DNA of 63,743 nt, from NCBI GenBank assembly GCA_038247205.1, contig JBBRVC010000002.1:1-63743 (forward strand), given 5' to 3'. Numbering within the stretch: position 1 is the first letter of the stretch; each line of letters opens with the position of its first letter. This DNA is from Bacteroidales bacterium. Lineage in GTDB: Bacteria; Bacteroidota; Bacteroidia; Bacteroidales; VadinHA17. A model generated the notes under the pieces. The model was not told the origin of the DNA. It saw only the letters and a program-made list of their open reading frames with translations, and searched no databases. The translations under genes and the position numbers were made by a program. This document shows positions 52,060 to 63,170 of this stretch, one piece after another.

Positions 52060-52668
52060 ATGTCGACACCAGGGTTACAACATGTGAACAGCGAAAAGAG
52101 CCAAACCATATTTATAAAAAATATGGTTTGTTCATCATGTATCCGGGTGGTTAGGGAGGACCTGACCAAACTGGGTATAACTGTACTCGATGTTAAGCTG
52201 GGCGAAGCAACCATTGTTTACAACCGGGATAAGATAAGTAAACAAGATATAGATCAGGTACTGAATAGTTTTGGGATGGCTCTGATTATAAATAAGGATG
52301 AGCTTTTGGTGGAGCAAATCAAACAAACTGTTATTGAACTGGTTCACCACATGAACAATGTGAATTCAATTGCCCGGAAATCGGAATACCTGGTAGAGAA
52401 GATGGGAAAAAGCTACCAGACACTGTCCAAACTCTTCTCACGATTCGAGACCATAACCCTCGAACGTTACATCATTCTCCAGAAAATAGAACGGGTAAAA
52501 GATCTGGCCATGGAAGACAATATTTCATTGAGTGAAATTGCATGGATGATGGATTACAGCAGTCCAAATCATCTATCCAGCCAATTCAAAATCATCACCG
52601 GCGTTTCCCTGTCCGAATTCAAAAAAAATTCCACAATCCATCGTAAGCCAATCAACAATCTTTACTGA
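52060..52668 (+). CDS. AraC-family transcriptional regulator with N-terminal heavy-metal-associated (HMA)-like domain
   Basis: N-terminal IFIKNMVCSSCIRVVREDLTKLGI...GEATIVY resembles the ferredoxin-like HMA fold with an MxCxxC motif. The C-terminus carries an AraC HTH (SLSEIAWMMDYSSPNHLSSQFKIITGVSLSEFKK). Confidence 0.75.
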   Translation: MSTPGLQHVNSEKSQTIFIKNMVCSSCIRVVREDLTKLGITVLDVKLGEATIVYNRDKISKQDIDQVLNSFGMALIINKDELLVEQIKQTVIELVHHMNNVNSIARKSEYLVEKMGKSYQTLSKLFSRFETITLERYIILQKIERVKDLAMEDNISLSEIAWMMDYSSPNHLSSQFKIITGVSLSEFKKNSTIHRKPINNLY

Positions 52669-52675
52669 TTACCGT

Positions 52676-52698
52676 ATTTTGTAAATCATTTACAAAAT
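52676..52698. promoter_or_regulatory. 11-1-11 perfect palindrome (candidate operator or weak terminator) between regulator and operon
   Basis: ATTTTGTAAAT-C-ATTTACAAAAT, 8 nt after the AraC stop. A TAnnTTTG-like Bacteroidota -7 element (TATTTTTG, 52727-52734) lies about 22 nt upstream of the next ATG. Confidence 0.4.
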
Positions 52699-52755
52699 CA
52701 TATAGCACTTCCTTTTCGCTCTATATTATTTTTGTATTCATAAAAACTAATTGAG

Positions 52756-53019
52756 ATGAAAATAACTGACGAAGTAAGAATAAGCGACAATGGTTTCGTT
52801 TTTAATTCGAATACTGGCGATTCGTTCAATGTCAATGCAACCGGGCTTGAGCTAACAAAGCTGATTGCCCAGGGTCACGACTTTGAATCCATCAAAGCCA
52901 AATTTCTGGCGAAATACGATATCGACGACCTGTCTTTTGAAAAAGACTTCTATGAGTTCTGTGCATTGATTAAGCACCATCAACTCACCACAACCGAAGA
53001 TCCACTTGATTTCAAATAA
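52756..53019 (+). CDS. PqqD-family (RRE-like) small protein
   Basis: 87 aa. FVFNSNTGDSFNVNATGLELTKLIAQGHDFESIKAKFLAKYDIDDLSFEKDFYEFCALIKHHQL matches the PqqD consensus layout (N.tG..f.LN.tG..i...l..G.s...i...l...Y.v....l..D...F...L...gL). Confidence 0.7.
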   Translation: MKITDEVRISDNGFVFNSNTGDSFNVNATGLELTKLIAQGHDFESIKAKFLAKYDIDDLSFEKDFYEFCALIKHHQLTTTEDPLDFK

Positions 53020-53026
53020 GTCAACC

Positions 53027-54067
53027 ATGATAAAATTAACAGTAGCTGTTACCGGGCTCAACAACACGGATAATCCGGGGCCTGGCGTACCGGTAATCCG
53101 ATCGTTAAAAGAATCGACCGAATTTGAGCTAAGGATTATCGGGTTGGTTTACGAAACCCTTGAACCGGGGATTTATATGGAAGGATTATGCGATAAGATA
53201 TTCCAGATTCCCTATCCATCAGCAGGTTCCAACGAATTAATCGACCGCATTGAGGCCATCCACAACATGGATCCCATTGATGTAATCATTCCCAATTTCG
53301 ATTCTGAACTCTATTCGTTTATGAAAAGCGAGGAGCGTTTACGTAAATGTGGCATACACACTTTTCTGCCTACCATAAAGCAATTTCAGGAGCGGGATAA
53401 AGACCAGCTACCCGAATATGGTGAAAAATATGGCATCAAAGTGCCGGCAAGTTTAAACCTTGGCAGCCATAACCAAATATCAGAAATTAAAGAGAAATTT
53501 GAGTATCCTGTAATGGTGAAGGGTAAGTTTTACGATGCATACATAGCTTACAACACTGAACAGGTGAAGCAGGCCTTCAATAAGATTTCGTCAAAATGGG
53601 GATTGCCCGTTATCATTCAGAAATTTGTGAAAGGTACCGAGGTTAATGTGGTTGCACTGGGCGATGGTCAGGGGAATACTATTGCAGCCGTGCCCATGCG
53701 CAAGCAATACATTACCGATAAAGGTAAGGCCTGGGGCGGTATCACTTTATCAGACGAGAAAATGCTTGCTATTACGCGGGGTTTGATTCGTAAAACCAGA
53801 TGGAAAGGTGGCATGGAGCTAGAAATGATTAAAACAGTTGCCGGTGAGTATTACCTCATTGAGATTAATCCCCGCATCCCTGCTTGGGTTTATTTGGCTG
53901 TTGGTGCCGGACAAAATATTCCCGAAGCCCTTGTGAAACTGGCGTTGGGTCTTGAGGTAGCTCCTATGGAATCGTACAAATCGGGAAAAATGTTTGTGCG
54001 TTATTCATACGACATTATTGTTGACCTCGAGAAGTTTGAAAGTATTGCAATGAATGGAGAAATTTAA
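53027..54067 (+). CDS. ATP-grasp family ligase
   Basis: YPVMVKGK (ATP Lys), IIQKFVKGTEVNV (hinge), and GGMELEMIK...YYLIEINPRIP (Mg/ATP-binding E..E.N). I prefer the ATG at 53027, 7 nt after the upstream stop. Confidence 0.8.
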   Translation: MIKLTVAVTGLNNTDNPGPGVPVIRSLKESTEFELRIIGLVYETLEPGIYMEGLCDKIFQIPYPSAGSNELIDRIEAIHNMDPIDVIIPNFDSELYSFMKSEERLRKCGIHTFLPTIKQFQERDKDQLPEYGEKYGIKVPASLNLGSHNQISEIKEKFEYPVMVKGKFYDAYIAYNTEQVKQAFNKISSKWGLPVIIQKFVKGTEVNVVALGDGQGNTIAAVPMRKQYITDKGKAWGGITLSDEKMLAITRGLIRKTRWKGGMELEMIKTVAGEYYLIEINPRIPAWVYLAVGAGQNIPEALVKLALGLEVAPMESYKSGKMFVRYSYDIIVDLEKFESIAMNGEI

Positions 54068-54080
54068 TAACCAATGTATT

Positions 54081-55424
54081 ATGGAAAATATTAAATACGA
54101 AAAACCAACCATCAATAAAATTAATGCAGGTATGCCCAGCAAATTCGGTATGCCTGTAAAACAGAGAATCATTTCAGAAATCGATGGATTTAATGTTACA
54201 TCGTTGATCGAAGAGTATGGCTCGCCCTTGTTTGTGGTTTCTGAAAAAACCATTCGAGATGTATATACCGAGGCAAAACGTGCTTTCGAAACGAGGTATC
54301 CAAAAGTGCAATTTGCATGGTCGTATAAAACCAATTATCTCGATGCAATTTGCAGTATTTATCATAACGAAGGTTCTTGGGCTGAAGTTGTTTCGGGTTT
54401 CGAATTCGAGAAAGCACTTTCGTTAGGGGTTAACGGCACGCAAATCCTATTCAATGGACCCGATAAATCGGAGGCCGATCTGACCATGGCCATCGAACAT
54501 AATGCTTGCATACACATCGACCATTTTGATGAGCTTTATCAACTGATTGAGATAACGCGAAAAATGCAGAAAAAAGCAAGGGTAGCCATTCGCATCAATT
54601 TGGATGCAGGGATTTATCCCATCTGGGACCGATTTGGTTTCAACTATGAAAATGGCGATGCTTGGAACGCCATCAACAGGATTATGCTGACCGATAGTCT
54701 TGAATTAATTGGATTGCATACCCACATTGGAACATACATTATGGCTCAGTCTGCATATGCCATTGCCGCGTCAAAGTTGGCAAACCTTTATATGGCCATT
54801 CATCGCAAATTCGACTATTGGTTAAAGTACATCGATTTGGGCGGTGGTTTTGCTTCAAAAAATACATTAAAAGGGGCATATATGCCCGGTTCCGAAACCT
54901 GTCCGTCGTTCGATGAATATGCCGAAGCCATCTCTAATGCGCTCATTTCATCCGAAATTCCACACGAAAATTTACCGGTGCTTTTTCTCGAAACCGGAAG
55001 GGCATTAATCGATGATGCCGGGTATTTGCTCACCACAGTGATTGCCAACAAACGGTTGAATGGAGGCAGGCGCTCCATGGTGATCGATGCCGGAATTAAT
55101 TTGCTGTTTACCTCGTTCTGGTATAACCTTGGGATTTATCCGTCGAAAGAGATTTCAGGACATTCCGAAGAGTCGACTATTTATGGACCGTTGTGCATGA
55201 ATATCGATGTTATCCGCGATGCCATTGTTTTTCCACAGGTGAAACCCGGTGATCAACTGGTTGTTGAGCGTGTAGGTGCTTACAATATGACGCAATGGAT
55301 GCAGTTTATTAAATATCGACCCAATGTGGTTTTGATTGATATGGATGGTAAAGCGCACATTATCCGAAAAAAGGAGAGCCTCGAAACTTTCAAAAAGATG
55401 GAGCTAAATCCAAAATTAGAGTAA
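54081..55424 (+). CDS. fold-III (Orn/DAP/Arg-type) PLP-dependent decarboxylase
   Basis: Hallmark motifs in order: FAWSYKTNY (PLP Lys), LHTHIGT, YIDLGGGF, LFLETGRAL (EPGR-like), and GPLCMNIDV (C...D). The start is 54081, or 54054 if it overlaps the upstream gene. Confidence 0.85.
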   Translation: MENIKYEKPTINKINAGMPSKFGMPVKQRIISEIDGFNVTSLIEEYGSPLFVVSEKTIRDVYTEAKRAFETRYPKVQFAWSYKTNYLDAICSIYHNEGSWAEVVSGFEFEKALSLGVNGTQILFNGPDKSEADLTMAIEHNACIHIDHFDELYQLIEITRKMQKKARVAIRINLDAGIYPIWDRFGFNYENGDAWNAINRIMLTDSLELIGLHTHIGTYIMAQSAYAIAASKLANLYMAIHRKFDYWLKYIDLGGGFASKNTLKGAYMPGSETCPSFDEYAEAISNALISSEIPHENLPVLFLETGRALIDDAGYLLTTVIANKRLNGGRRSMVIDAGINLLFTSFWYNLGIYPSKEISGHSEESTIYGPLCMNIDVIRDAIVFPQVKPGDQLVVERVGAYNMTQWMQFIKYRPNVVLIDMDGKAHIIRKKESLETFKKMELNPKLE

Positions 55425-55434
55425 ATAAGCAGGT

Positions 55435-57657
55435 ATGGGTAATATCATAAAAAAGTTGGGCGATGAAGCTCTCTCTTCTGTGTTGAACAGCTACTCACAG
55501 GTCTTTTTTTCCACATCGAAAGTGTTGGCCTTATGCCTGCTATTTATCAGTTTTTTCGATTATGGAGCTGGCATTGGCGGATTTATTGCAGTGGTAATTG
55601 CCAACTTATTGGCTCATTTTCTGGGTTACAATGCCTATTTTAGAAAGGCGGGGCTTTACGGTTTCAACAGTTTGTTGGTGGGATTAGGGGTAGGCTTGAT
55701 ATTTCAATCTTCCTTTGAACTTTACATACTTATTGCCATTGCAACAACCACTTGTTTTTTCCTTACCATTGTTTTTCAGGGAGTGCTCGGAAAATATGGG
55801 CTTCCTTTTTTAAGCATACCCTTTTTAATTACCATATGGATCATCACTTTATCGGTTGACCAACTAACTTCCCTGAATATTAGCGAACGGGGAATTTACA
55901 CCTACAATGAACTTTACGGACTCGGCGGTCATGTAATGGTTAGCTTGTATAACTGGTTAGATAAGTTTGTGACCTCTTCATTTATACGGATTTATTTTTA
56001 TTCACTTGGAGCCATATTTTTTCAAAAGGGATTGCTTGCCGGGATCATTATTTCGTTTGGAATTTTGATCTATTCGCGAATTACCTTCGTGCTTTCAATA
56101 TTGGGCTATTCGGTGTCGTATCTCTTTTATGTATTGGTTGGGATCGAATTTAACTCGTTGAGCTATACTTTTATAGGATTCAATTATATTCTGACTGCGA
56201 TTGCGTTGGGGGGCTATTACTTAATTCCGGGACGAATCAGTTACGCATGGATTATCATACTTTTACCATCGGTTGTATTGGTCACAATCAGTGCACAACA
56301 GATTTTTTATCAGTTCCATATTTCGCCCTATTCGCTTCCGTTTAACATGGTGGTGTTGATGTTCATTTATGCGTTAAAACTTCGTGAGAAAAGACCCAAA
56401 GGTTTGCTCGAAACACCTGTGCAGTTGGGCAATCCCGAGAGAAACCTCTACCTGCAATCGGGCAATATGAAACGATTCCCGACAAAATATGCGGTTTCGG
56501 CTTCGCTGCCTTTTTTTGGCGAATGGGAAGTTAGCCAGGGACATAAAGGTGAGATTACGCATAAAGGGGCCTGGCAAAATGCCTGGGATTTTATTGTTAC
56601 CGATAAAGATGGCAGGCAGTATAAAGGAAGTGGCGATTATCCTGAAGATTATTATTGCTTTGGGAAAGTAATTGTAGCTCCTTATGATGGCACTGTGATT
56701 GAAATTGTGAATTCCATACCCGACAACAGCATTGGCGATGTGGATACCAAAAATAATTGGGGTAATACAATCATCATAAAACATGGTTTCGATATTTATT
56801 CGAAATTGTGCCATCTGAAATACCACTCTATCGAAGTTAAGGTAGGCGATAATGTTAAACAGGGACAATTGCTCGGAAAATGTGGCAACTCAGGTCGATC
56901 ACCTTATCCACATCTGCACTTTCAGTTTCAGTCAACACCATACATTGGCTCTCCAACCATCGATTATCCATTTGGCCATTATCTGCTAAGGGGTGAAAAA
57001 TACACTTTCAAAACGTTTTCATTTCCACAAAAAGGCGATGTAGTGGCCAATCCGGTTAAAAATGTGATGTTGGCAAATGTGATGCATTTTACGCCAGGAC
57101 AAAAAATTTGTGGCGAATTTCAGGTTACATCGATTAAAACCGGATTGAAGATACACGAAGAGTACTTCAAATGGAGAGTTGATACTGATGTGTTCAATTC
57201 AACCTATTTCGAATGTGAAGAGGATAAGTCGATTGCATACTTGTACAATAATGGCAACTTGCACTATTTTACTAATTTTACAGGGAAAAGAGAGTCGCCT
57301 TTGTATTGGTTTTTTCTAGCCTTTATTAAAGTTCCTCTTGGATTTTTACCCAATAGCAACATTCATGATCAAGTACCTCTAAATTTGTTGTTTGGCGGTC
57401 TGTTGAAGTTTATTCAGGATTTTGTTGCCCCGTTGTTCCTTTTTCTGAAGGTCAATTACCGGCTTGAAATCAAAGAGGCAGGCGACATCCTTTCGTCGGG
57501 CGATTTGAAGATGGTTGCCGAAATCTCAAAGAAGATTGCGGGCAGGGAGACAGATAAATATCTTTTCGATATTGGGATTAATGAAAATGGGGTTTTTGAA
57601 ATTGAAATTCTAACAGGAGAGCTTAAAATCAATTTAAAATGTCGAAACGAATCGTAA
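55435..57657 (+). CDS. fusion protein: urea-transporter (UT)-like polytopic channel, M23 metallopeptidase domain, and an unassigned ~240-aa C-terminal domain
   Basis: aa ~10-320 form ~9-10 TM helices with UT-family motifs (NSYSQVFFS, GLYGFNSLLVGLG). aa ~355-500 form M23 (THKGAWQNAWDF, then GNSGRSPYPHLHFQ with HxH). I recognise nothing in aa 501-740. Confidence 0.75.
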   Translation: MGNIIKKLGDEALSSVLNSYSQVFFSTSKVLALCLLFISFFDYGAGIGGFIAVVIANLLAHFLGYNAYFRKAGLYGFNSLLVGLGVGLIFQSSFELYILIAIATTTCFFLTIVFQGVLGKYGLPFLSIPFLITIWIITLSVDQLTSLNISERGIYTYNELYGLGGHVMVSLYNWLDKFVTSSFIRIYFYSLGAIFFQKGLLAGIIISFGILIYSRITFVLSILGYSVSYLFYVLVGIEFNSLSYTFIGFNYILTAIALGGYYLIPGRISYAWIIILLPSVVLVTISAQQIFYQFHISPYSLPFNMVVLMFIYALKLREKRPKGLLETPVQLGNPERNLYLQSGNMKRFPTKYAVSASLPFFGEWEVSQGHKGEITHKGAWQNAWDFIVTDKDGRQYKGSGDYPEDYYCFGKVIVAPYDGTVIEIVNSIPDNSIGDVDTKNNWGNTIIIKHGFDIYSKLCHLKYHSIEVKVGDNVKQGQLLGKCGNSGRSPYPHLHFQFQSTPYIGSPTIDYPFGHYLLRGEKYTFKTFSFPQKGDVVANPVKNVMLANVMHFTPGQKICGEFQVTSIKTGLKIHEEYFKWRVDTDVFNSTYFECEEDKSIAYLYNNGNLHYFTNFTGKRESPLYWFFLAFIKVPLGFLPNSNIHDQVPLNLLFGGLLKFIQDFVAPLFLFLKVNYRLEIKEAGDILSSGDLKMVAEISKKIAGRETDKYLFDIGINENGVFEIEILTGELKINLKCRNES

Positions 57658-58973
57658 TGATATGTGCTTTGGTTGGCTTATTTACAACCATTGTGGCGCA
57701 AGGAAAATTAAATATTGAGGAAGTTGACAAATATTCGTACCAGCTATACCAGGAAGAAAAATGGGATGAATTGATCAAATACTCACAGGAATCAATGGAG
57801 CAGGGGATCGATTTTTTTTATCTCAGGGCAAGAACCGGAATTGCATGGTACAACCTGGGGAAATATAGAAATGCTTCTACCTGGTTTATTCGGGCTGGTG
57901 AAAACGATCTTTCGGCTGACTGGCTGCAGGAATATTTGTACTATAGCCTTATTTTTAGCGGGCGAACATTGGATGCCAACAAATATGCATCTTCTTTTTC
58001 AGATGCCACGACAAAGAAAATTGGCTTTAAACGGGCAGCAGTCACTAATTTGACTTATGAAACCGGATACAGTTTTAATACCGATTTTGATGATTTGAAA
58101 ATACGTGATTTTAAATCTGAAGCGAACCTCGGCGACGATTATGGCGAGGCGTATTTGCTTAAAAATTACATATTCCATTCGTTCGATCTTTTTCATCGAA
58201 TTGCACCAAATTTCACATTGCAGCACAACCTTACCTACATCGGGGTAAACCGTGAAACGCTGGTTGATTGGGTGACACAAACCACATCGCCTGTTCAGGT
58301 GAAGGAGTTGCAGTATTATGTTAGCCCTGTTTGTGTGATTGGCAAACGACTGAATGTTTCAACCTCATTGAATTATATATTAGGAAATGCCGATGTTTAT
58401 GCCGGGTCATTAAATTCAAATTTGGATAAGGTCTATACCGTTTCAAAGTCAAAATATAGCGATTATTTAGTCTCATCTTCGGTTTGGTCTCATTTGGGCA
58501 ACCTGTCATATGGCGTTGAGATCAACGGTGGTGACATAAGCAATTCCAGATTCTATCAGGTTTCGGGTTGGGGTACCTGGTATCCGCTTTCGAACTTAAA
58601 TCTCTATTTTACGCCCAGAATTTACTTTAAATCTGACAACGATATCAATAGTTTTGCTTTTAAAGCCATGGGCATTTCGGGTGGGGCGCAATTGGGTCAA
58701 TTCCATCTTTATGGGCAATATTTGTTTGGCGATATGGAAAACTTTGTTGAGTCGGCCGGATCTGTTATTGCCAATTACCCTGGCCGATCGGATTGGAAAC
58801 TGATGGGGAGTCTCTATTTTCCATTTTCTAAAAGATATCAATTTGTGTTGCGTTACATCAATCAGAATATTATTGAAGAATATCAGGTTTATACAGCAGG
58901 GGAGAAAAGTAATTCACTAGAATATAGCTACTTGAAAAATACATTAACAGGAGGAATATCATGGACATTTTAA
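57639..58973 (+). CDS. outer-membrane beta-barrel protein with N-terminal helical (TPR-like) region
   Basis: Signal peptide MSKRIVMICALVGLFTTIVAQ, a helical ~100 aa, then long runs of alternating amphipathic strands. The terminus is the OMP-type GGISWTF. The start overlaps the upstream stop by 19 nt. Confidence 0.5.
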   Translation: MSKRIVMICALVGLFTTIVAQGKLNIEEVDKYSYQLYQEEKWDELIKYSQESMEQGIDFFYLRARTGIAWYNLGKYRNASTWFIRAGENDLSADWLQEYLYYSLIFSGRTLDANKYASSFSDATTKKIGFKRAAVTNLTYETGYSFNTDFDDLKIRDFKSEANLGDDYGEAYLLKNYIFHSFDLFHRIAPNFTLQHNLTYIGVNRETLVDWVTQTTSPVQVKELQYYVSPVCVIGKRLNVSTSLNYILGNADVYAGSLNSNLDKVYTVSKSKYSDYLVSSSVWSHLGNLSYGVEINGGDISNSRFYQVSGWGTWYPLSNLNLYFTPRIYFKSDNDINSFAFKAMGISGGAQLGQFHLYGQYLFGDMENFVESAGSVIANYPGRSDWKLMGSLYFPFSKRYQFVLRYINQNIIEEYQVYTAGEKSNSLEYSYLKNTLTGGISWTF

Positions 58974-59584
58974 AAAGGATTTTATTTGTAGTTGGATTTT
59001 GTTTGGTTGTGAACTCAGGATTCACACAATCAAACCAAGCTTCATTGCAAGCTGCATTTTTGAAAAGTTATACATTTGAAAAAAGTGGTGATTTCAGTGC
59101 ATCGATGAATGCTTTGAAAAACGTATACGACGAATCATCGTATGAATTGAATCTTAGGTTGGGATGGCTGAATTACAATGCTGGATTATTCGACGAATCG
59201 GTCATTTTTTACAAAAAGACACAGAAGCTTAAACCTTATTCGGAGGAAGCTCGGTTTGGATTGATACTACCACTTTCGGCCCTGGGTAAATGGAACGAAG
59301 TAATTAATATTTACGACGAAATCCTTCAATTAAGCCCAAATAACACGGTTGCTATTTACCGGCTGGGACTTGTATATTATGGACGCAAGGAGTATGACAA
59401 AGCCAATTCACTATTTAATAAGGTGGTCGATTTATATCCGTTTGGTTATGATGGGTTATTGATGTTGGGATGGACATCTTATTTTCTGGGTAATTCAAAC
59501 CAGGCCAGGATACTTTTTAATAAAGTACTCCTTTATAACCCTGGCGATAAATCGGCAACGGAGGGATTGAGCTTACTCAAATAA
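58961..59584 (+). CDS. secreted tetratricopeptide-repeat protein
   Basis: Signal peptide (FVVGFCLVVNSGFTQ). At least four TPR-like units (e.g. A..YRLGLVYYGRKEYDKANSLFNKVVDLYP). The start overlaps the upstream stop by 13 nt. Confidence 0.75.
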   Translation: MDILKRILFVVGFCLVVNSGFTQSNQASLQAAFLKSYTFEKSGDFSASMNALKNVYDESSYELNLRLGWLNYNAGLFDESVIFYKKTQKLKPYSEEARFGLILPLSALGKWNEVINIYDEILQLSPNNTVAIYRLGLVYYGRKEYDKANSLFNKVVDLYPFGYDGLLMLGWTSYFLGNSNQARILFNKVLLYNPGDKSATEGLSLLK

Positions 59585-59633
59585 ATAATCAAAACAGAAT
59601 GATAAAGAGAAATGTTTTTACTAGTTATTCATC

Positions 59634-59798
59634 TTACTTCCGCCTAATACCTGAATTAATTTCAATTTTTGAATTACCTGAAATAATTGAAAAAGTGCTG
59701 TCAGTTCGTACGGCCTGAGATTGTCCTGCAATATTATTGCATATACCTGATAATCCGGAAATAATGAGGATGAAGGTTGTTAGTATTTGAAATCTCAT
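59634..59798 (-). CDS. small hypothetical secreted peptide (54 aa from the internal Met)
   Basis: MRFQILTTFILIISGLSGICNN looks like a signal peptide, followed by ~30 polar residues. No homology recognised. Coding status uncertain. Confidence 0.3.
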   Translation of the reverse strand: MRFQILTTFILIISGLSGICNNIAGQSQAVRTDSTFSIISGNSKIEINSGIRRK

Positions 59799-59857
59799 CT
59801 TAAAATTTAATTTAATACCAAAGTACAACCTGTTTTTGTGTCATTTTCAAATTAAAA

Positions 59858-59901
59858 TCAATGAGTGAGGGAGTGTTTATTGAACTTCCCTCTCTCATTG
59901 A
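59858..59901 (-). terminator. long imperfect hairpin downstream of the SusD remnant
   Basis: TCAATGAGTGAGGGAG-loop-CTTCCCTCTCTCATTGA (about 14 Watson-Crick pairs plus 1 wobble pair and one mismatch), followed on the minus strand by a T-rich run. Confidence 0.55.
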
Positions 59902-59915
59902 TGAGTTTAAAGATA

Positions 59916-60329
59916 TTAGTTATAACCAGGGTTTTGCAAAAGCCCGGGGATTAAATCTACCTCAGTTTGTGGTTTAGGTAATAACTTATTATATTCGGCA
60001 ACATAAGGATAAAGGGCTATATTAGCAGACACAACTTGTTCTTTACGAACAAGGTCAAACCATCTTTTACATTCAAATGCCAATTCCCATTCGCGTTCTT
60101 TTATAACTGCAGCATCAAAATCAGCTTTTGACATTCCTGATGGAAGATCAGGATAAACAGCGGGATTGAAGCCGCCAGCTCTTCTTCTTACTTTATTAAG
60201 AGCCTCAAGTGCTTCTGCTGAAGGAGCTCCTTCTGCCATGTTTGCTGCTTCAGCATAGATTAATAATACCTCTGCATATCTGTTTATTGGGAAGAATCCA
60301 TCTCCACCGCCCTTTAATCGATTTTTCAT
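59916..60329 (-). pseudogene. RagB/SusD-family nutrient-binding lipoprotein, C-terminal ~135-aa remnant only
   Basis: YAEVLLIYAEAANM..., ALNKVRRRAG, REREWELAFECKRWFDLVR and a terminal LLQNPGYN form the conserved SusD C-terminus. Full-length SusD proteins are roughly 450-600 aa with a lipoprotein signal. Here the ORF begins 3 nt after a terminator hairpin, and no SusC gene is present. Confidence 0.75.
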
Positions 60330-60389: not shown

Positions 60390-63170
60390 CTACTGATAGC
60401 AAACCAGTGCACCATCATTATAAACCATCAGCCCATTGTCTGTGCCGAGGTAGATGAGACCATTCTTATCTATCACTATACTCAAAATATTATCGCTGAT
60501 AAGTCCGTCTTTCATTGTATAAGAAATCCACTCCGTACCATCAAAAATTGATAGCCCTCCCTGTGTCCCAAACCAGACTTTTCCTTCAGGGTCAGTAGCG
60601 ATTGCCTGAACAAAGTTATTTATCAAACCGTTCTCAGTGTTATATATTGTCCAGTTTTCCAGAGTGTTAAACCCTTTATGTTTACCAACACCCATGTCTG
60701 TTCCGAACCATTGTATTGAGTCATGGTCAATGCAGATGCTATAAACATTATCGGAAGGTAGTTCGATAGGACCCCATTGTGCATAGGAAGAAGCACCTGA
60801 AATTCCATCTACTTTATCTTTGAAAACTCTGGTTATACCGGCTCCCTTTGTTGCAACATAAAGAGAATCTCCATTAAGGCTTGTAGCCATGGCTGTTACA
60901 GGGAAATCCTTGAACATGTCAAGCGGATAAGTTCTCATATATGCCGGAGTAAGCCATTTTTTATCAGAAAGTGCTGATATTCCGTTATTTGTACCGAACC
61001 AGCGTAAATTATTTCTTCCAATTACAACTGAAAGCACACTGTCGCTTAATATGGCAGATCCGGCTTTATTGAATGTGGCAGTTGCTGAGCCTGGTTCAAT
61101 CGGAAGTGAAGCGGTAACAGCTCCCTGTCCGGTGGCAATCCATAATCCCGGTCCTTCTTTTGATAGTTCATATACGAGGTCATTAAGCTGGCCACCGGGT
61201 ATGTTTTCAGAAACCAGCGCAAATCTGCTGTTGACAATTCCGGCATCGGTTAAGAACCATTTTCCATTATTGTCGTCAACTACTGCGGCATAAAACTTCT
61301 TTCCCTTCAATGCATCGATCAAAGGTCGTTTAGTTACTGATTTGAAAGTACCACTTTTATTCTCAGTGGTTACCGCTGCAGATGCTGGAGGTCTGACGTC
61401 AGCCGGAGGTAATACTACTGTTGCGGGAACAACATCCTTACCTGATTTTACTTTTTTTGCTTTAGCTGGCTTTATTTTGGAAGGTATCGTAATAAGTTCG
61501 ATGCCGGTATTTTTGCCAAGATTTCGTGAATACTGTTTATTATCAGGATTGTTCCAATGCTCATGAATTCCAAGGCTGGTTAAAGGTTTTCCGCTATTAT
61601 CAGGGTCATATGTTATGCCAATCGGCCAGTTGGCAGGATCGGCAGCCTGATGCAGATAATCATCCACTCCGTTTACATTTGGCATAGTTTCAATCCTTGC
61701 ATTACGGGGGTCATGAGTGTATGTGCCATTCCATTCCGTTCTGAGGAAATCATAACATACTGATTCAAGGGCAACCTGATCCTGCGAAATGAAGATTGAA
61801 TTGCTCCAGTCATTATTAAATGGTGACATGAAATACTTAACGGGTTGTCCTCCTTCAGAAGCGCCGCCACCGAATAAGCCGTCAACTACAAATAGTAAAG
61901 TATTCTGACCCAGATACTTGCTCCCCATAAGGTCTACAAAAACACGATACTTGCGATATCCGCCGTTTGTAGGTTTTGCTTCTGCAACAGGTGAAACATG
62001 TGAATAATGAAGATGATATGCACCTGCTCTTGAATGAGATCCGAAATGATTCTTTGCAGTGAGAGTTATCCCTGACCTGAGGTGAGGTTTAAAATTTGCT
62101 ACATTGATCATGTAATCAGCATTCTCGATAACATCGTAGAATCTGTCAGTCTGTGATTTATCAGAATAAAAAATAAGTTCATTGACTGTAGGTTTGATCA
62201 GGGTTCTTCCGTGTTGCGTTGTTACATTATCGATGATACCTACATTTGGGAATTCTGCTCTCCATACATCGGAATTATGACCAAAAACATGGTTCTGAGG
62301 GTCACCTATAGAAATATCTTCCTGTGCAACTCCTGCCTCATTTATTAGTTGCCTTAATATCTCAAGCACTACTGAAGGGCCAGTCTGGCAAGTACCAAAG
62401 GTTGGATTCGCAGATGGACGAAGGTTAAACCCATTAGCCATATCATCCTTGCTGAGGGCACCTCTTGCGCTTGTCTGATTTATCTTGATAAATATTTTTT
62501 CTCCTTTTGTATATCCTTTATCGACATTTTTTTTCTTCAGATTAAAGCTGTGAAAGATAGCGTCCCATGATTCAGCAGCATTTTTTTTCCCTGATAGTTT
62601 CAGAACAGATTCGCTCACCATTTTACTAACAACCTTATGATCTGTATTTCCGGGATTATAAAAATAGCCCTCCATGTTTTCATTAGTTGCATTTTTGTCC
62701 CATGCCCATATTACCCTGCCGGGATTTATTCCAACCGGTGTCCCAATGGGTTGATTAGGTCCGTCGTCAGGCCCGGTGGAGGCTTTAGCAAGTGCTGAAG
62801 CATTCTGACTGCCCTGAATGATTGAAAATACCATACCTCCTGCAGCAGCAAAAATGAAAGCTCCGGCGGCAATGTATTTAGCACGTAACAAATTTAGTTT
62901 GGCCTTCCGGAGAGCGACCATAATTCCTCCAAGAGTGAGAATATATAAAACAAACCCCGACATAAATGGAGCAGCAACTCTCATGCATGGATAACTTGCT
63001 CTGGAAGGTTTTGGGATGACCCTGACAAGGAACCAGATGGTTGATATTATTCCCAGGAGATAAAATGTCAGTCTTGGAGGAAGATGTTTTTCACTCATCC
63101 AGTTTCGTATAGCTCCTAATTTCCCTTTGAGTTTAAGTACATCAAATTTATCTATTTTCAACATTTTCAA
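60390..63170 (-). CDS. membrane-anchored DUF362-domain protein fused to a two-component-regulator-type beta-propeller
   Basis: N-terminal TM helices with KPSRASYPCMRVAAP. DUF362-like core (IFIKINQ..., NFKPHLRSGITLTAKNHFGS). A Pro/Ala linker, then six or more repeats of the WFGT/ATxxG type (LWIATGQGAV, LRWFGTNNGI, LYVATKGAGI, IQWFGTDMGV, KVWFGTQGGL, LIYLGTDNGL). Confidence 0.6.
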   Translation of the reverse strand: MKMLKIDKFDVLKLKGKLGAIRNWMSEKHLPPRLTFYLLGIISTIWFLVRVIPKPSRASYPCMRVAAPFMSGFVLYILTLGGIMVALRKAKLNLLRAKYIAAGAFIFAAAGGMVFSIIQGSQNASALAKASTGPDDGPNQPIGTPVGINPGRVIWAWDKNATNENMEGYFYNPGNTDHKVVSKMVSESVLKLSGKKNAAESWDAIFHSFNLKKKNVDKGYTKGEKIFIKINQTSARGALSKDDMANGFNLRPSANPTFGTCQTGPSVVLEILRQLINEAGVAQEDISIGDPQNHVFGHNSDVWRAEFPNVGIIDNVTTQHGRTLIKPTVNELIFYSDKSQTDRFYDVIENADYMINVANFKPHLRSGITLTAKNHFGSHSRAGAYHLHYSHVSPVAEAKPTNGGYRKYRVFVDLMGSKYLGQNTLLFVVDGLFGGGASEGGQPVKYFMSPFNNDWSNSIFISQDQVALESVCYDFLRTEWNGTYTHDPRNARIETMPNVNGVDDYLHQAADPANWPIGITYDPDNSGKPLTSLGIHEHWNNPDNKQYSRNLGKNTGIELITIPSKIKPAKAKKVKSGKDVVPATVVLPPADVRPPASAAVTTENKSGTFKSVTKRPLIDALKGKKFYAAVVDDNNGKWFLTDAGIVNSRFALVSENIPGGQLNDLVYELSKEGPGLWIATGQGAVTASLPIEPGSATATFNKAGSAILSDSVLSVVIGRNNLRWFGTNNGISALSDKKWLTPAYMRTYPLDMFKDFPVTAMATSLNGDSLYVATKGAGITRVFKDKVDGISGASSYAQWGPIELPSDNVYSICIDHDSIQWFGTDMGVGKHKGFNTLENWTIYNTENGLINNFVQAIATDPEGKVWFGTQGGLSIFDGTEWISYTMKDGLISDNILSIVIDKNGLIYLGTDNGLMVYNDGALVCYQ

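Follow-up and report, generated by a model that had tools for sequence, protein, structure and literature searches.

We report a three-part fusion protein encoded in a 63,743-nucleotide stretch of contig JBBRVC010000002.1 from a Bacteroidales bacterium (assembly GCA_038247205.1), the whole of which is called the window below. The protein joins a urea-transporter-fold (UT) membrane domain, an M23 metallopeptidase domain and a family-specific C-terminal domain (CTD), and its operon context is the main clue to its role. We tentatively propose that the fusion is the inner-membrane component of a conserved envelope-spanning pathway of biosynthesis and export, in which the M23 domain would cleave an amide-linked conjugate and the product would exit through the UT pore and an outer-membrane barrel, an explanation that we regard as possible rather than probable. 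The fusion and its parts are located as follows:

55435..57657, + strand: UT-M23-CTD fusion protein, a single open reading frame (ORF) of 740 amino acids (Pfam, homologues, AlphaFold model)
55474..56376, + strand: UT membrane domain, residues 14-314 (Pfam UT, Foldseek to dvUT)
56500..56934, + strand: M23 metallopeptidase domain, about residues 356-500, with the Pfam core at residues 410-499 (Pfam, Foldseek)
56947..57654, + strand: family-specific CTD, residues 505-740, mostly beta, an open barrel with short helices

Structure and distribution of the fusion protein

A preliminary description of this stretch, made from the sequence, had seen a single 740-residue ORF in three parts, namely a UT-like N-terminal region with the motifs SQVFF and GLYGFN, an M23 domain with the motif PHLHFQ and a variant first metal motif, and a C-terminal part that resembled nothing recognised. 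The ORF stands as described at 55435-57657 on the + strand, the motifs are present, and both domain assignments hold against family profiles (Pfam UT, E=1.3e-54; Pfam Peptidase_M23, E=1.7e-16). The same description had named what could undo it, that is, a poor UT profile score, M23 ligands that vary among orthologues, or an artefact of assembly or frameshift. We found a high UT score, invariant M23 residues and full-length, colinear homologues in hundreds of genomes, the last of which rules out an artefact.

The top 120 homologues are about 656-784 residues long (mostly 739-741), and all of them carry both the UT and the M23 Pfam domains. A scan of one genome per GTDB species, which gives a lower bound, placed relatives in at least 564 species genomes, mostly of Prolixibacteraceae, Marinilabiliales and other Bacteroidota. 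Cultured carriers include Mariniphaga sediminis, Maribellus luteus, M. comscasis and Draconibacterium species; in M. comscasis WC007 (CP046401.1) the operon is found at about 3.069-3.077 Mb. Residue conservation is given below for 52 family members, with identity down to 31%. Among distant members conservation is highest in the M23 domain, at 52% identity, compared with 37% in the UT domain and 28% in the CTD. An AlphaFold model of the full-length protein, built on the same number of family members (52), has a mean predicted local distance difference test score (pLDDT) of 88.1 and a predicted template-modelling score (pTM) of 0.77.

Homologues are named in databases either "urea transporter" or "peptidoglycan DD-metalloendopeptidase", and both names are probably misleading for proteins of UT-M23-CTD architecture. 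A 2026 survey of UT evolution reported M23 domains C-terminal to bacterial UTs, with one model and no function (PMC12998343). Our literature searches returned no report on the function of the UT+M23 fusion or on its operon. The parts are known; it is their combination, and the predicted location of the M23 domain, that are uncharacterised.

The UT domain and its pore

The match to Pfam UT (PF03253; TCDB 1.A.28) extends over residues 14-314 and profile positions 2-291 of 292, with 185.8 bits against a cut-off of 25. Foldseek comparison of this part of the model, in which pLDDT is mostly above 85, with dvUT, the urea channel of Desulfovibrio (3k3f/3me1), gave E values of about 1e-15 and target-normalised template-modelling scores (TM) of 0.83-0.87, which corresponds to the ten-helix inverted-repeat fold. 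Furthermore, the asparagines of the two GFN signatures are kept in 50/52 and 52/52 members. The Yut equivalog model TIGR03441 was missed (117.9 bits, cut-off 274.6).

The dvUT filter residues, as compiled in PMC4357013, were mapped onto the fusion through HMMER and local alignments, the mapping in the second UT repeat being taken from a short local alignment to a dvUT fragment. Ten of the 12 filter positions are the same or conservatively replaced. The cytoplasmic Si site maps to Q22/V23/F77/L126, all of which are kept, the Sm site to L81/S127/L253/S300, with leucines L81 and L253 kept, and the periplasmic So site to A193/I194/F196/Y299. Replacements at the last two sites are family-wide. The dvUT Sm threonines T130 and T294 have become serines (S127 in 49 of the 52 members, S300 in 44), and at the So site E187 gives way to Ala, Ser or Gly and L293 to Tyr or Phe. 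Because the filter is largely kept, yet So and Sm residues are swapped throughout the family, the pore lining is, to judge from these patterns, under selection but unlike that of a canonical urea transporter.

With the UT/SLC14 channels (dvUT, Yut, ApUT and UT-B) the fusion shares the full Pfam profile, the dvUT fold and both GFN signatures. It differs from them in its Sm serines, in the replacement of the So-site residues E187 and L293, in about 420 extra C-terminal residues that include an enzyme domain, and in having no urease or urea-metabolism genes nearby. No urease, amidase or nitrogen-regulation gene was found in the clusters examined.

The M23 domain and its predicted location

The Pfam Peptidase_M23 (PF01551; MEROPS M23) match covers residues 410-499 with 60.6 bits against a cut-off of 28.7. 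Five residues, H376, D385, H460, H493 and H495, are each invariant (52/52 members). The variant first metal motif noted in the preliminary description reads T-H376-KGAWQNAW-D385, that is, H-x8-D instead of the canonical HxxxD, and by their invariance H376 and D385 are its putative metal ligands. A long spacing of the first motif has also been reported in LasA-type M23 enzymes. H460 and the PHLHF segment align with the (mutated) catalytic residues of the Campylobacter jejuni peptidoglycan peptidase in the 6jmx-series structures. By sequence the domain is nearest to peptidoglycan DD-peptidases (Pgp3/6jmx, MepM and ShyA), and the Foldseek matches of this part are DipM, Csd, EnpA and LasA. Compared with lysostaphin, LytM, Pgp3 and LasA, the domain shares the HxH motif, the catalytic His, the His/Asp pair and the fold, and has H-x8-D in place of HxxxD. 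It has the residues of an active-type zinc peptidase with its catalytic site seemingly intact. A degenerate LytM-type regulatory domain is ruled out, since none of the five catalytic residues varies.

Characterised M23 enzymes are extracytoplasmic hydrolases of cell wall or elastin, whereas the M23 domain of the fusion is attached to a channel and is predicted to be cytoplasmic. The helix inventory of the model is that of dvUT, with zero transmembrane helices past residue 315. The N- and C-termini of the UT fold lie on one side of the membrane, which in UT-B is the cytoplasm. Lysines and arginines number five in residues 315-330 (five among the eight residues 315-322), two at the N-terminus and two in the 38-residue central loop. 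Given the absence of a late transmembrane helix, the common side of the UT-fold termini and the positive charge at 315-330, the M23 domain and the CTD are probably on the cytoplasmic face, an atypical position for M23, and there are probably three copies of them per UT trimer. The side of the membrane, which the preliminary description had set as a question, is in this way answered by prediction from the UT fold and the charge bias.

The C-terminal domain

A Pfam search with residues 505-740 gave zero family matches, in line with the preliminary description. When the same residues were searched against 1.84 billion representative proteins, 293 clusters matched; the CTD was present in every full-length match (about 690-748 residues) at about residues 470-735, and shorter matches look like gene fragments. 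The CTD is confined to the UT-M23-CTD architecture. Modelled alone with AlphaFold it reached a pLDDT of 93.4. The Foldseek comparison suggested in the preliminary description did return a best match, LolA (4ki3, 2zpc and 7z6w; E about 1e-4, probability 1.0), but with TM of only 0.30-0.41 and a root-mean-square deviation of about 10 A. The next fold neighbours were DUF1849, Rv2717c and CRABP-like barrels. As TM stays under 0.5, this amounts to a weak hint of a LolA-like (lipid-carrier) fold.

A conserved six-gene operon

The fusion gene is the fourth of six genes, which overlap their neighbours or sit 10 nt apart and are predicted to be translationally coupled. The other five genes are the following:

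52756..53019, + strand: PqqD-like protein of the RiPP recognition element (RRE) type, RiPP denoting a ribosomally synthesised and post-translationally modified peptide; 87 amino acids, first operon gene (Pfam PqqD)
53006..54067, + strand: ATP-grasp ligase (Pfam ATPgrasp_Ter, ATP-grasp_3, CPSase_L_D2)
54054..55424, + strand: pyridoxal-phosphate (PLP) decarboxylase of alanine-racemase fold, FigC/FslC type (PDB profile match 7kh2)
57639..58973, + strand: outer-membrane protein (OMP), 444 amino acids, with a signal peptide, a short tetratricopeptide repeat (TPR) region and a putative beta-barrel ending GGISWTF (family profile, Pfam TPR, alignment)
58961..59584, + strand: secreted TPR protein, 207 amino acids, last operon gene in the window (Pfam TPR_2, E=1.4e-17, and other TPR families)

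A census was made of 89 related loci, in which the denominators are those loci with enough flanking sequence. The PqqD/ATP-grasp/decarboxylase triad lies upstream of the fusion gene in 67 of 68 loci, the pair of OMP and TPR genes downstream of it in 77 of 78, and the whole six-gene set is colinear in 61 of 61. This set is kept around members that are only about 27-35% identical in the CTD. Consequently, since the genes flanking the operon are otherwise unrelated between loci, the operon is a self-contained module. PADLOC defence-system models gave zero matches to the six operon proteins at E<=0.001.

The sole adequately flanked locus without the upstream triad beside its fusion gene is L020:1-9000, on a contig of a metagenome-assembled genome, where the missing triad could represent a genuine operon split or a binning or assembly problem.

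Partner enzymes and envelope proteins

The PqqD-like protein scores just over the Pfam PqqD cut-off (E=6.4e-5, 23.7 bits against 23.4), and the NCBIfam lasso and PqqD chaperone models stay under theirs. It carries a conserved motif, IS(D/E)xGFVFNxxTG(D/E)SFxLN, and an acidic C-terminal tail in all lineages. A search for a precursor peptide in about 80 loci revealed no conserved small ORF in the 700 nt on either side of the cluster or in its intergenic inserts; it yielded just palindromic repeats and off-frame readings of a cargo gene of the type IX secretion system (T9SS) described below.

The ATP-grasp ORF opens at TTG 53006, overlapping the PqqD gene. Its homologues are 348 residues long and start 9-10 nt past the PqqD stop, and on this length the true start is probably ATG 53027. 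Sixteen members share an unchanging ExN motif (E286/N288), along with many further invariant positions, and the enzyme is to all appearances intact. The best PDB matches, at about 1e-10 to 1e-11, were the large chain of carbamoyl phosphate synthetase (CPS) and 2pn1, with no close characterised relative. A more specific assignment was not reached, as the PDB profile search gave generic CPS, biotin-carboxylase and PurD/K matches only.

The decarboxylase ORF opens at ATG 54054, overlapping the ATP-grasp gene, and because its homologues are 446 residues long the true start may be ATG 54081. Its PDB matches are N-citrylornithine decarboxylase (FigC, 7kh2; 3.1e-62), diaminopimelate (DAP) decarboxylase (1.5e-37) and BtrK (1.6e-26), and NCBIfam FslC scored 243.9 against a cut-off of 500. 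No variation was seen at K92, H224, G263, E313, R316 or C381 among 75 members. The Cys-loop reads C-M-N-I-D, with a Met after the catalytic Cys as in FigC (C354-M355); in ornithine decarboxylase and DAP decarboxylase that Met position is occupied by the acidic residue that binds the side-chain amine. The citrate binders of FigC, H357, R387 and N389, correspond to I384, Q414 and M416, all invariant in the family. FigC, SbnH, MccE and BtrK act on substrates in which a larger scaffold carries an amino acid bound through its side chain, and it is this amino-acid moiety that they decarboxylate (PMC7857480, PMC8503589). Since a Met lies in the Cys-loop and the citrate binders are replaced by Ile, Gln and Met, the substrate here is probably not a citryl conjugate but an amino acid whose extension is non-acidic and capped by an amide.

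The OMP family profile has its match to consensus TPR proteins at positions 66-93, and Pfam TPR_1 or TPR_2 was detected in 7 of 15 members. Its alignment displays strands of alternating pattern and a conserved C-terminal aromatic residue (Phe), a sequence pattern that points to a beta-barrel. Against solved structures the barrel had zero sequence matches, the profile having matched TPR proteins only. The 207-residue TPR protein has a signal-peptide-like N-terminus and is kept in all lineages examined.

A proposed pathway

The fusion may work as follows. The ATP-grasp enzyme would ligate a carboxylate to an amine in such a way that an amino acid is tethered by its side chain and its alpha-amino-acid end is left free, an end that would resemble the substrates of FigC, SbnH, MccE and BtrK. 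The decarboxylase would turn this free end into a primary amine. The M23 domain would then hydrolyse an unhindered amide of the conjugate, releasing or maturing the product where the pore opens to the cytoplasm, a step that can be likened to LysK freeing lysine from LysW or to BtrG removing a protecting group. The product, which we picture as slender, uncharged and amide-containing, would cross the inner membrane via the UT-like pore and the outer membrane via the TPR-barrel protein. By analogy, the mechanism borrows the logic of BtrI/J/K/G and LysW/X/K.

Several considerations weigh against this proposal. By dvUT homology the pore should pass only small planar solutes such as urea, and any exported product would therefore have to be very small or thread-like. 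A passive channel, moreover, supplies no directionality, and the topology is a prediction from homology and charge bias. From the PqqD-like protein one would expect a ligand that is a peptide or protein, yet the search in and around the cluster revealed no precursor peptide. Finally, the proposal accounts neither for the hydrophobic ligand at which the weakly LolA-like CTD hints nor for the T9SS cargo gene conserved in 39 of 76 relatives.

Alternative explanations

An unlikely alternative is maturation of a RiPP after the manner of the peptidase-containing ATP-binding cassette (ABC) transporters (PCATs). A ribosomal peptide encoded elsewhere would be bound through the RRE and modified by the ATP-grasp enzyme and the decarboxylase, its leader or scaffold would be cut by the cytoplasmic M23 domain, and what is exported would be a small released moiety instead of the entire peptide. 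The conserved RRE-type motif of the PqqD-like protein fits this idea, as does the fusion of a predicted cytoplasmic peptidase to a membrane conduit; M23 enzymes classically cleave Gly-Gly-type bonds, and in 3-thiaglutamate biosynthesis a protease regenerates the scaffold peptide. However, neither the flanks of the cluster, ahead of the PqqD gene and past the TPR gene, nor its intergenic gaps hold a conserved small ORF, the Pfam PqqD score is at threshold, and the pore is by homology too narrow for peptides. PLP decarboxylases also require a free alpha-amine, which excludes an ordinary peptide C-terminus. The likeness to PCATs extends to a predicted cytoplasmic peptidase on a membrane conduit with biosynthetic genes alongside, but the peptidase of the fusion is not C39, the protein has UT and M23 domains only, with no ABC or nucleotide-binding domain, no double-glycine precursor was found, and the conduit is a narrow passive channel fold. 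The preliminary description had suggested cleavage-coupled transport by analogy with such exporters. As a logic only, this has partial support, with a peptidase predicted on the cytoplasmic side, biosynthetic genes upstream and outer-membrane and periplasmic genes downstream; as PCAT-like peptide export it fails, since the protein lacks an energising domain, the cluster and its surroundings yielded no precursor peptide, and the pore is by homology narrow.

Transport might also run in the opposite direction, which we consider rather improbable. The outer-membrane barrel and the UT domain would take up a small compound of amide or ureido type, which the M23 domain would hydrolyse at the cytoplasmic exit, and the ATP-grasp enzyme and decarboxylase would process the products. 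The characterised bacterial UTs Yut and ApUT are uptake channels, the UT filter is largely kept, and a hydrolase at the cytoplasmic mouth would maintain an inward gradient. Set against this are the cluster's lack of urease, amidase and nitrogen-regulation genes, a dedicated TPR-barrel that would be unusual for a urea-sized solute, the lack of a known catabolic role for PqqD-like chaperones, and the fact that ATP-grasp ligases and FigC/BtrK-type decarboxylases are biosynthetic in all characterised cases (PMC7857480, PMC8503589).

We attach similarly little probability to the editing of cell-wall precursors, with the UT domain as a trimeric anchor from which the cytoplasmic M23 domain, with its lipid-binding-like CTD, would trim the peptide stems of lipid-linked precursors at the inner leaflet, the ATP-grasp enzyme and decarboxylase modifying the diamino-acid position. 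The nearest M23 sequences are the peptidoglycan DD-peptidases named above, the decarboxylase belongs to the DAP-decarboxylase clade, ATP-grasp ligases such as Ddl and Aslfm add amino acids to peptidoglycan precursors, and the best fold matches of the CTD are lipid-carrier barrels. The LolA similarity is weak, however (TM below 0.5), Met replaces the acidic amino-group-binding residue of DAP decarboxylase, the filter and signature motifs of the UT domain are conserved beyond the needs of an anchor, and the cluster has no Mur, flippase or glycosyltransferase genes. Such editing would also leave the outer-membrane barrel and TPR proteins without a role.

It is very unlikely that the fusion is an ordinary channel for urea or small amides gated by a cytoplasmic M23+CTD sensing module, with operon partners that are functionally separate. 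Degenerate LytM domains are known regulators, but the five catalytic residues are invariant here and M23 is the most conserved domain. UTs in other lineages are fused to non-enzymatic cytoplasmic modules (EF-hand, ankyrin; PMC12998343), which fits this view. Separate functions for the partners sit poorly with overlapping genes and strict six-gene colinearity (61/61).

The secretion of a polyamide, finally, is purely inferential and highly improbable; the energy source for translocation is not evident, and the ATP-grasp enzyme has no detectable specific similarity to polymerising ligases. In an extension of BtrJ/BtrK logic, the ATP-grasp enzyme and the decarboxylase would work iteratively, a terminal amine being gamma-glutamylated (or beta-aspartylated) and then decarboxylated, to give a side-chain-free oligo- or poly-(4-aminobutyrate or beta-alanine); this chain of planar amides would thread the slot-like UT pore, be cut by the cytoplasmic M23 domain at glycyl-like CH2-CO-NH-CH2 bonds and be exported by the TPR-barrel in the way of PgaA or BcsC. 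BtrJ adds Glu to the amine produced by BtrK, a homologue of the decarboxylase here, whose pocket suits an amide-capped neutral side chain; M23 enzymes favour glycyl-type bonds; TPR+barrel architectures export polymers in characterised systems; and Thr to Ser at both Sm positions should widen the constriction slightly. We know of no natural polymer of this type, and to our knowledge the passage of a chain through a UT pore has no precedent. If true, it would bring both a new biopolymer and a new translocation principle.

Comparison with known systems

With the butirosin module (BtrI/BtrJ/BtrK/BtrG) the operon shares an ATP-grasp enzyme and a homologous alanine-racemase-fold PLP decarboxylase (the BtrK match of 1.6e-26), together with a small partner protein and, in the proposed pathway, the decarboxylation of a tethered amino acid and a later hydrolytic deprotection. 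Here, by contrast, the small protein is PqqD-like and not an acyl carrier protein, the hydrolase is M23 and not a gamma-glutamyl cyclotransferase, and there is no aminoglycoside context. The LysW/LysX/LysK system likewise combines a small acidic-tailed protein, an ATP-grasp enzyme, one or more modifying enzymes and a zinc hydrolase that releases the product. It differs in that its small protein is a zinc-ribbon and its hydrolase is M20, whereas the small protein here has a PqqD fold, with a terminal residue that is not conserved, and the hydrolase is M23.

The closest solved relative of the decarboxylase comes from rhizoferrin biosynthesis (FigA/FigC, or FslA/FslC) and has the same Cys-Met loop; there, as with SbnH, ligation is followed by decarboxylation, the logic proposed here. 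The operon, however, is without an NRPS-independent siderophore (NIS) synthetase, a TonB receptor or a major facilitator superfamily exporter, and the citrate binders are replaced. An NIS pathway to a rhizoferrin-like siderophore was rejected because the clusters examined hold no NIS synthetase, FslC scores below cut-off and the citrate-binding residues are replaced.

On the envelope side, the operon resembles PgaA, BcsC, PelB and AlgK/AlgE in having an outer-membrane protein with N-terminal TPR and a putative C-terminal barrel, and also an extra periplasmic TPR protein, both encoded downstream of the inner-membrane component. Unlike the synthase-dependent exopolymer systems, it has no glycosyltransferase synthase (no glycosyltransferase domain was found in the operon proteins), and its TPR repeats number only about 2-3.

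Regulators and flanking genes

Upstream of the operon lie a regulatory gene and two candidate control elements:

52060..52668, + strand: AraC-family regulator with an N-terminal HMA-like domain, MxCxxC at C24/C27 (Pfam HTH_18, HMA)
52676..52698, unstranded: perfect 23-bp palindrome ATTTTGTAAAT-C-ATTTACAAAAT between the AraC and PqqD genes, candidate operator
52727..52734, + strand: TATTTTTG, a -7-box-like element 22 nt ahead of the PqqD start codon

The AraC protein matches Pfam HTH_18 (E=2e-12), and HMA under cut-off (E=0.0037). Its homologues adjoin the cluster, upstream or downstream, in 16 related loci and in divergent lineages, and it is a candidate for a dedicated operon regulator. The 17-bp core of the palindrome occurs once in the window, and the same core lies at equal distance upstream of the PqqD gene in L003, L010, L061 and L064; the element at 52676-52698 is accordingly listed as a candidate operator. 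The element TATTTTTG at 52727-52734 fits TAnnTTTG, which we take to be the Bacteroidetes -7 promoter consensus.

Other lineages have LytTR regulators, one of them with a nearby histidine kinase. Among the AraC regulators of L044, L075, L077 and L084, one or both of the HMA-like cysteines are missing in L044, L077 and L084, and metal sensing is therefore not family-wide. At L086:1207-6038 (GCA_003858645.1) the operon adjoins genes for a LytTR regulator, an extracytoplasmic function (ECF) sigma factor, Metal_resist, YHYH and SCO1/SenC, a single occurrence with a possible link to copper or metal stress. Taken together, the HMA CxxC seen here and lost elsewhere and the one distant SCO1/YHYH/Metal_resist locus are hints of a metal-regulated operon.

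The decarboxylase and fusion genes are 10 nt apart in the window. In close relatives a shared palindromic repeat element of about 280-380 nt lies between them (L001:8650-9000, L003:6540-6923, L008:8718-9000, L033:8720-9000 and L061:6099-6379); in L069 (6140-6820) the gap holds instead a small DUF559-like ORF flanked by repeats.

A T9SS cargo gene of about 265-277 codons, with a C-terminal Por_Secre_tail, directly follows the TPR gene in 39 of 76 loci (for example L001:13239-14072, L088:14163-14954 and L089:14175-14972). Carriers include Maribellus comscasis and the lineage of 46% identity, and the N-terminal part of about 170 residues matches no assignable family. A different T9SS cargo gene is found between the PqqD and ATP-grasp genes in L082 and L083. 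In the window, positions 59585-59916 hold neither the cargo gene nor any remnant of it. Just downstream of the operon, at 59916-60329 on the - strand, a 137-residue ORF represents a truncated SusD-like gene that covers only positions 151-297 of the SusD_RagB profile, which suggests rearrangement or deletion where relatives hold the T9SS cargo gene.

Further along the window, at 60390-63170 on the - strand and convergent with the operon, is encoded a 926-residue protein with an N-terminal membrane segment, DUF362 and C-terminal two-component-regulator propeller repeats. In two unrelated lineages a gene for an MscS-type mechanosensitive channel follows the operon at a distance of no more than a few kb (L084:11663-12559 and L088:16057-16995), which may be coincidence or may reflect an osmotic link.

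Implications

M23 enzymes are textbook extracytoplasmic cell-wall hydrolases, and UTs are textbook passive urea channels. Across at least 564 species the two occur in one protein, in which the catalytic site of the former and the pore lining of the latter have both been preserved by selection. Direct tests of the proposed pathway are feasible in cultured hosts with complete genomes (Maribellus comscasis, Draconibacterium and Mariniphaga). If the proposal is true, the UT fold would have gained a new job as the conduit for a biosynthetic product rather than urea, M23 enzymes would have acquired a new class of substrates, and the family would embody a new coupling of a final hydrolytic step to membrane passage without ATP.

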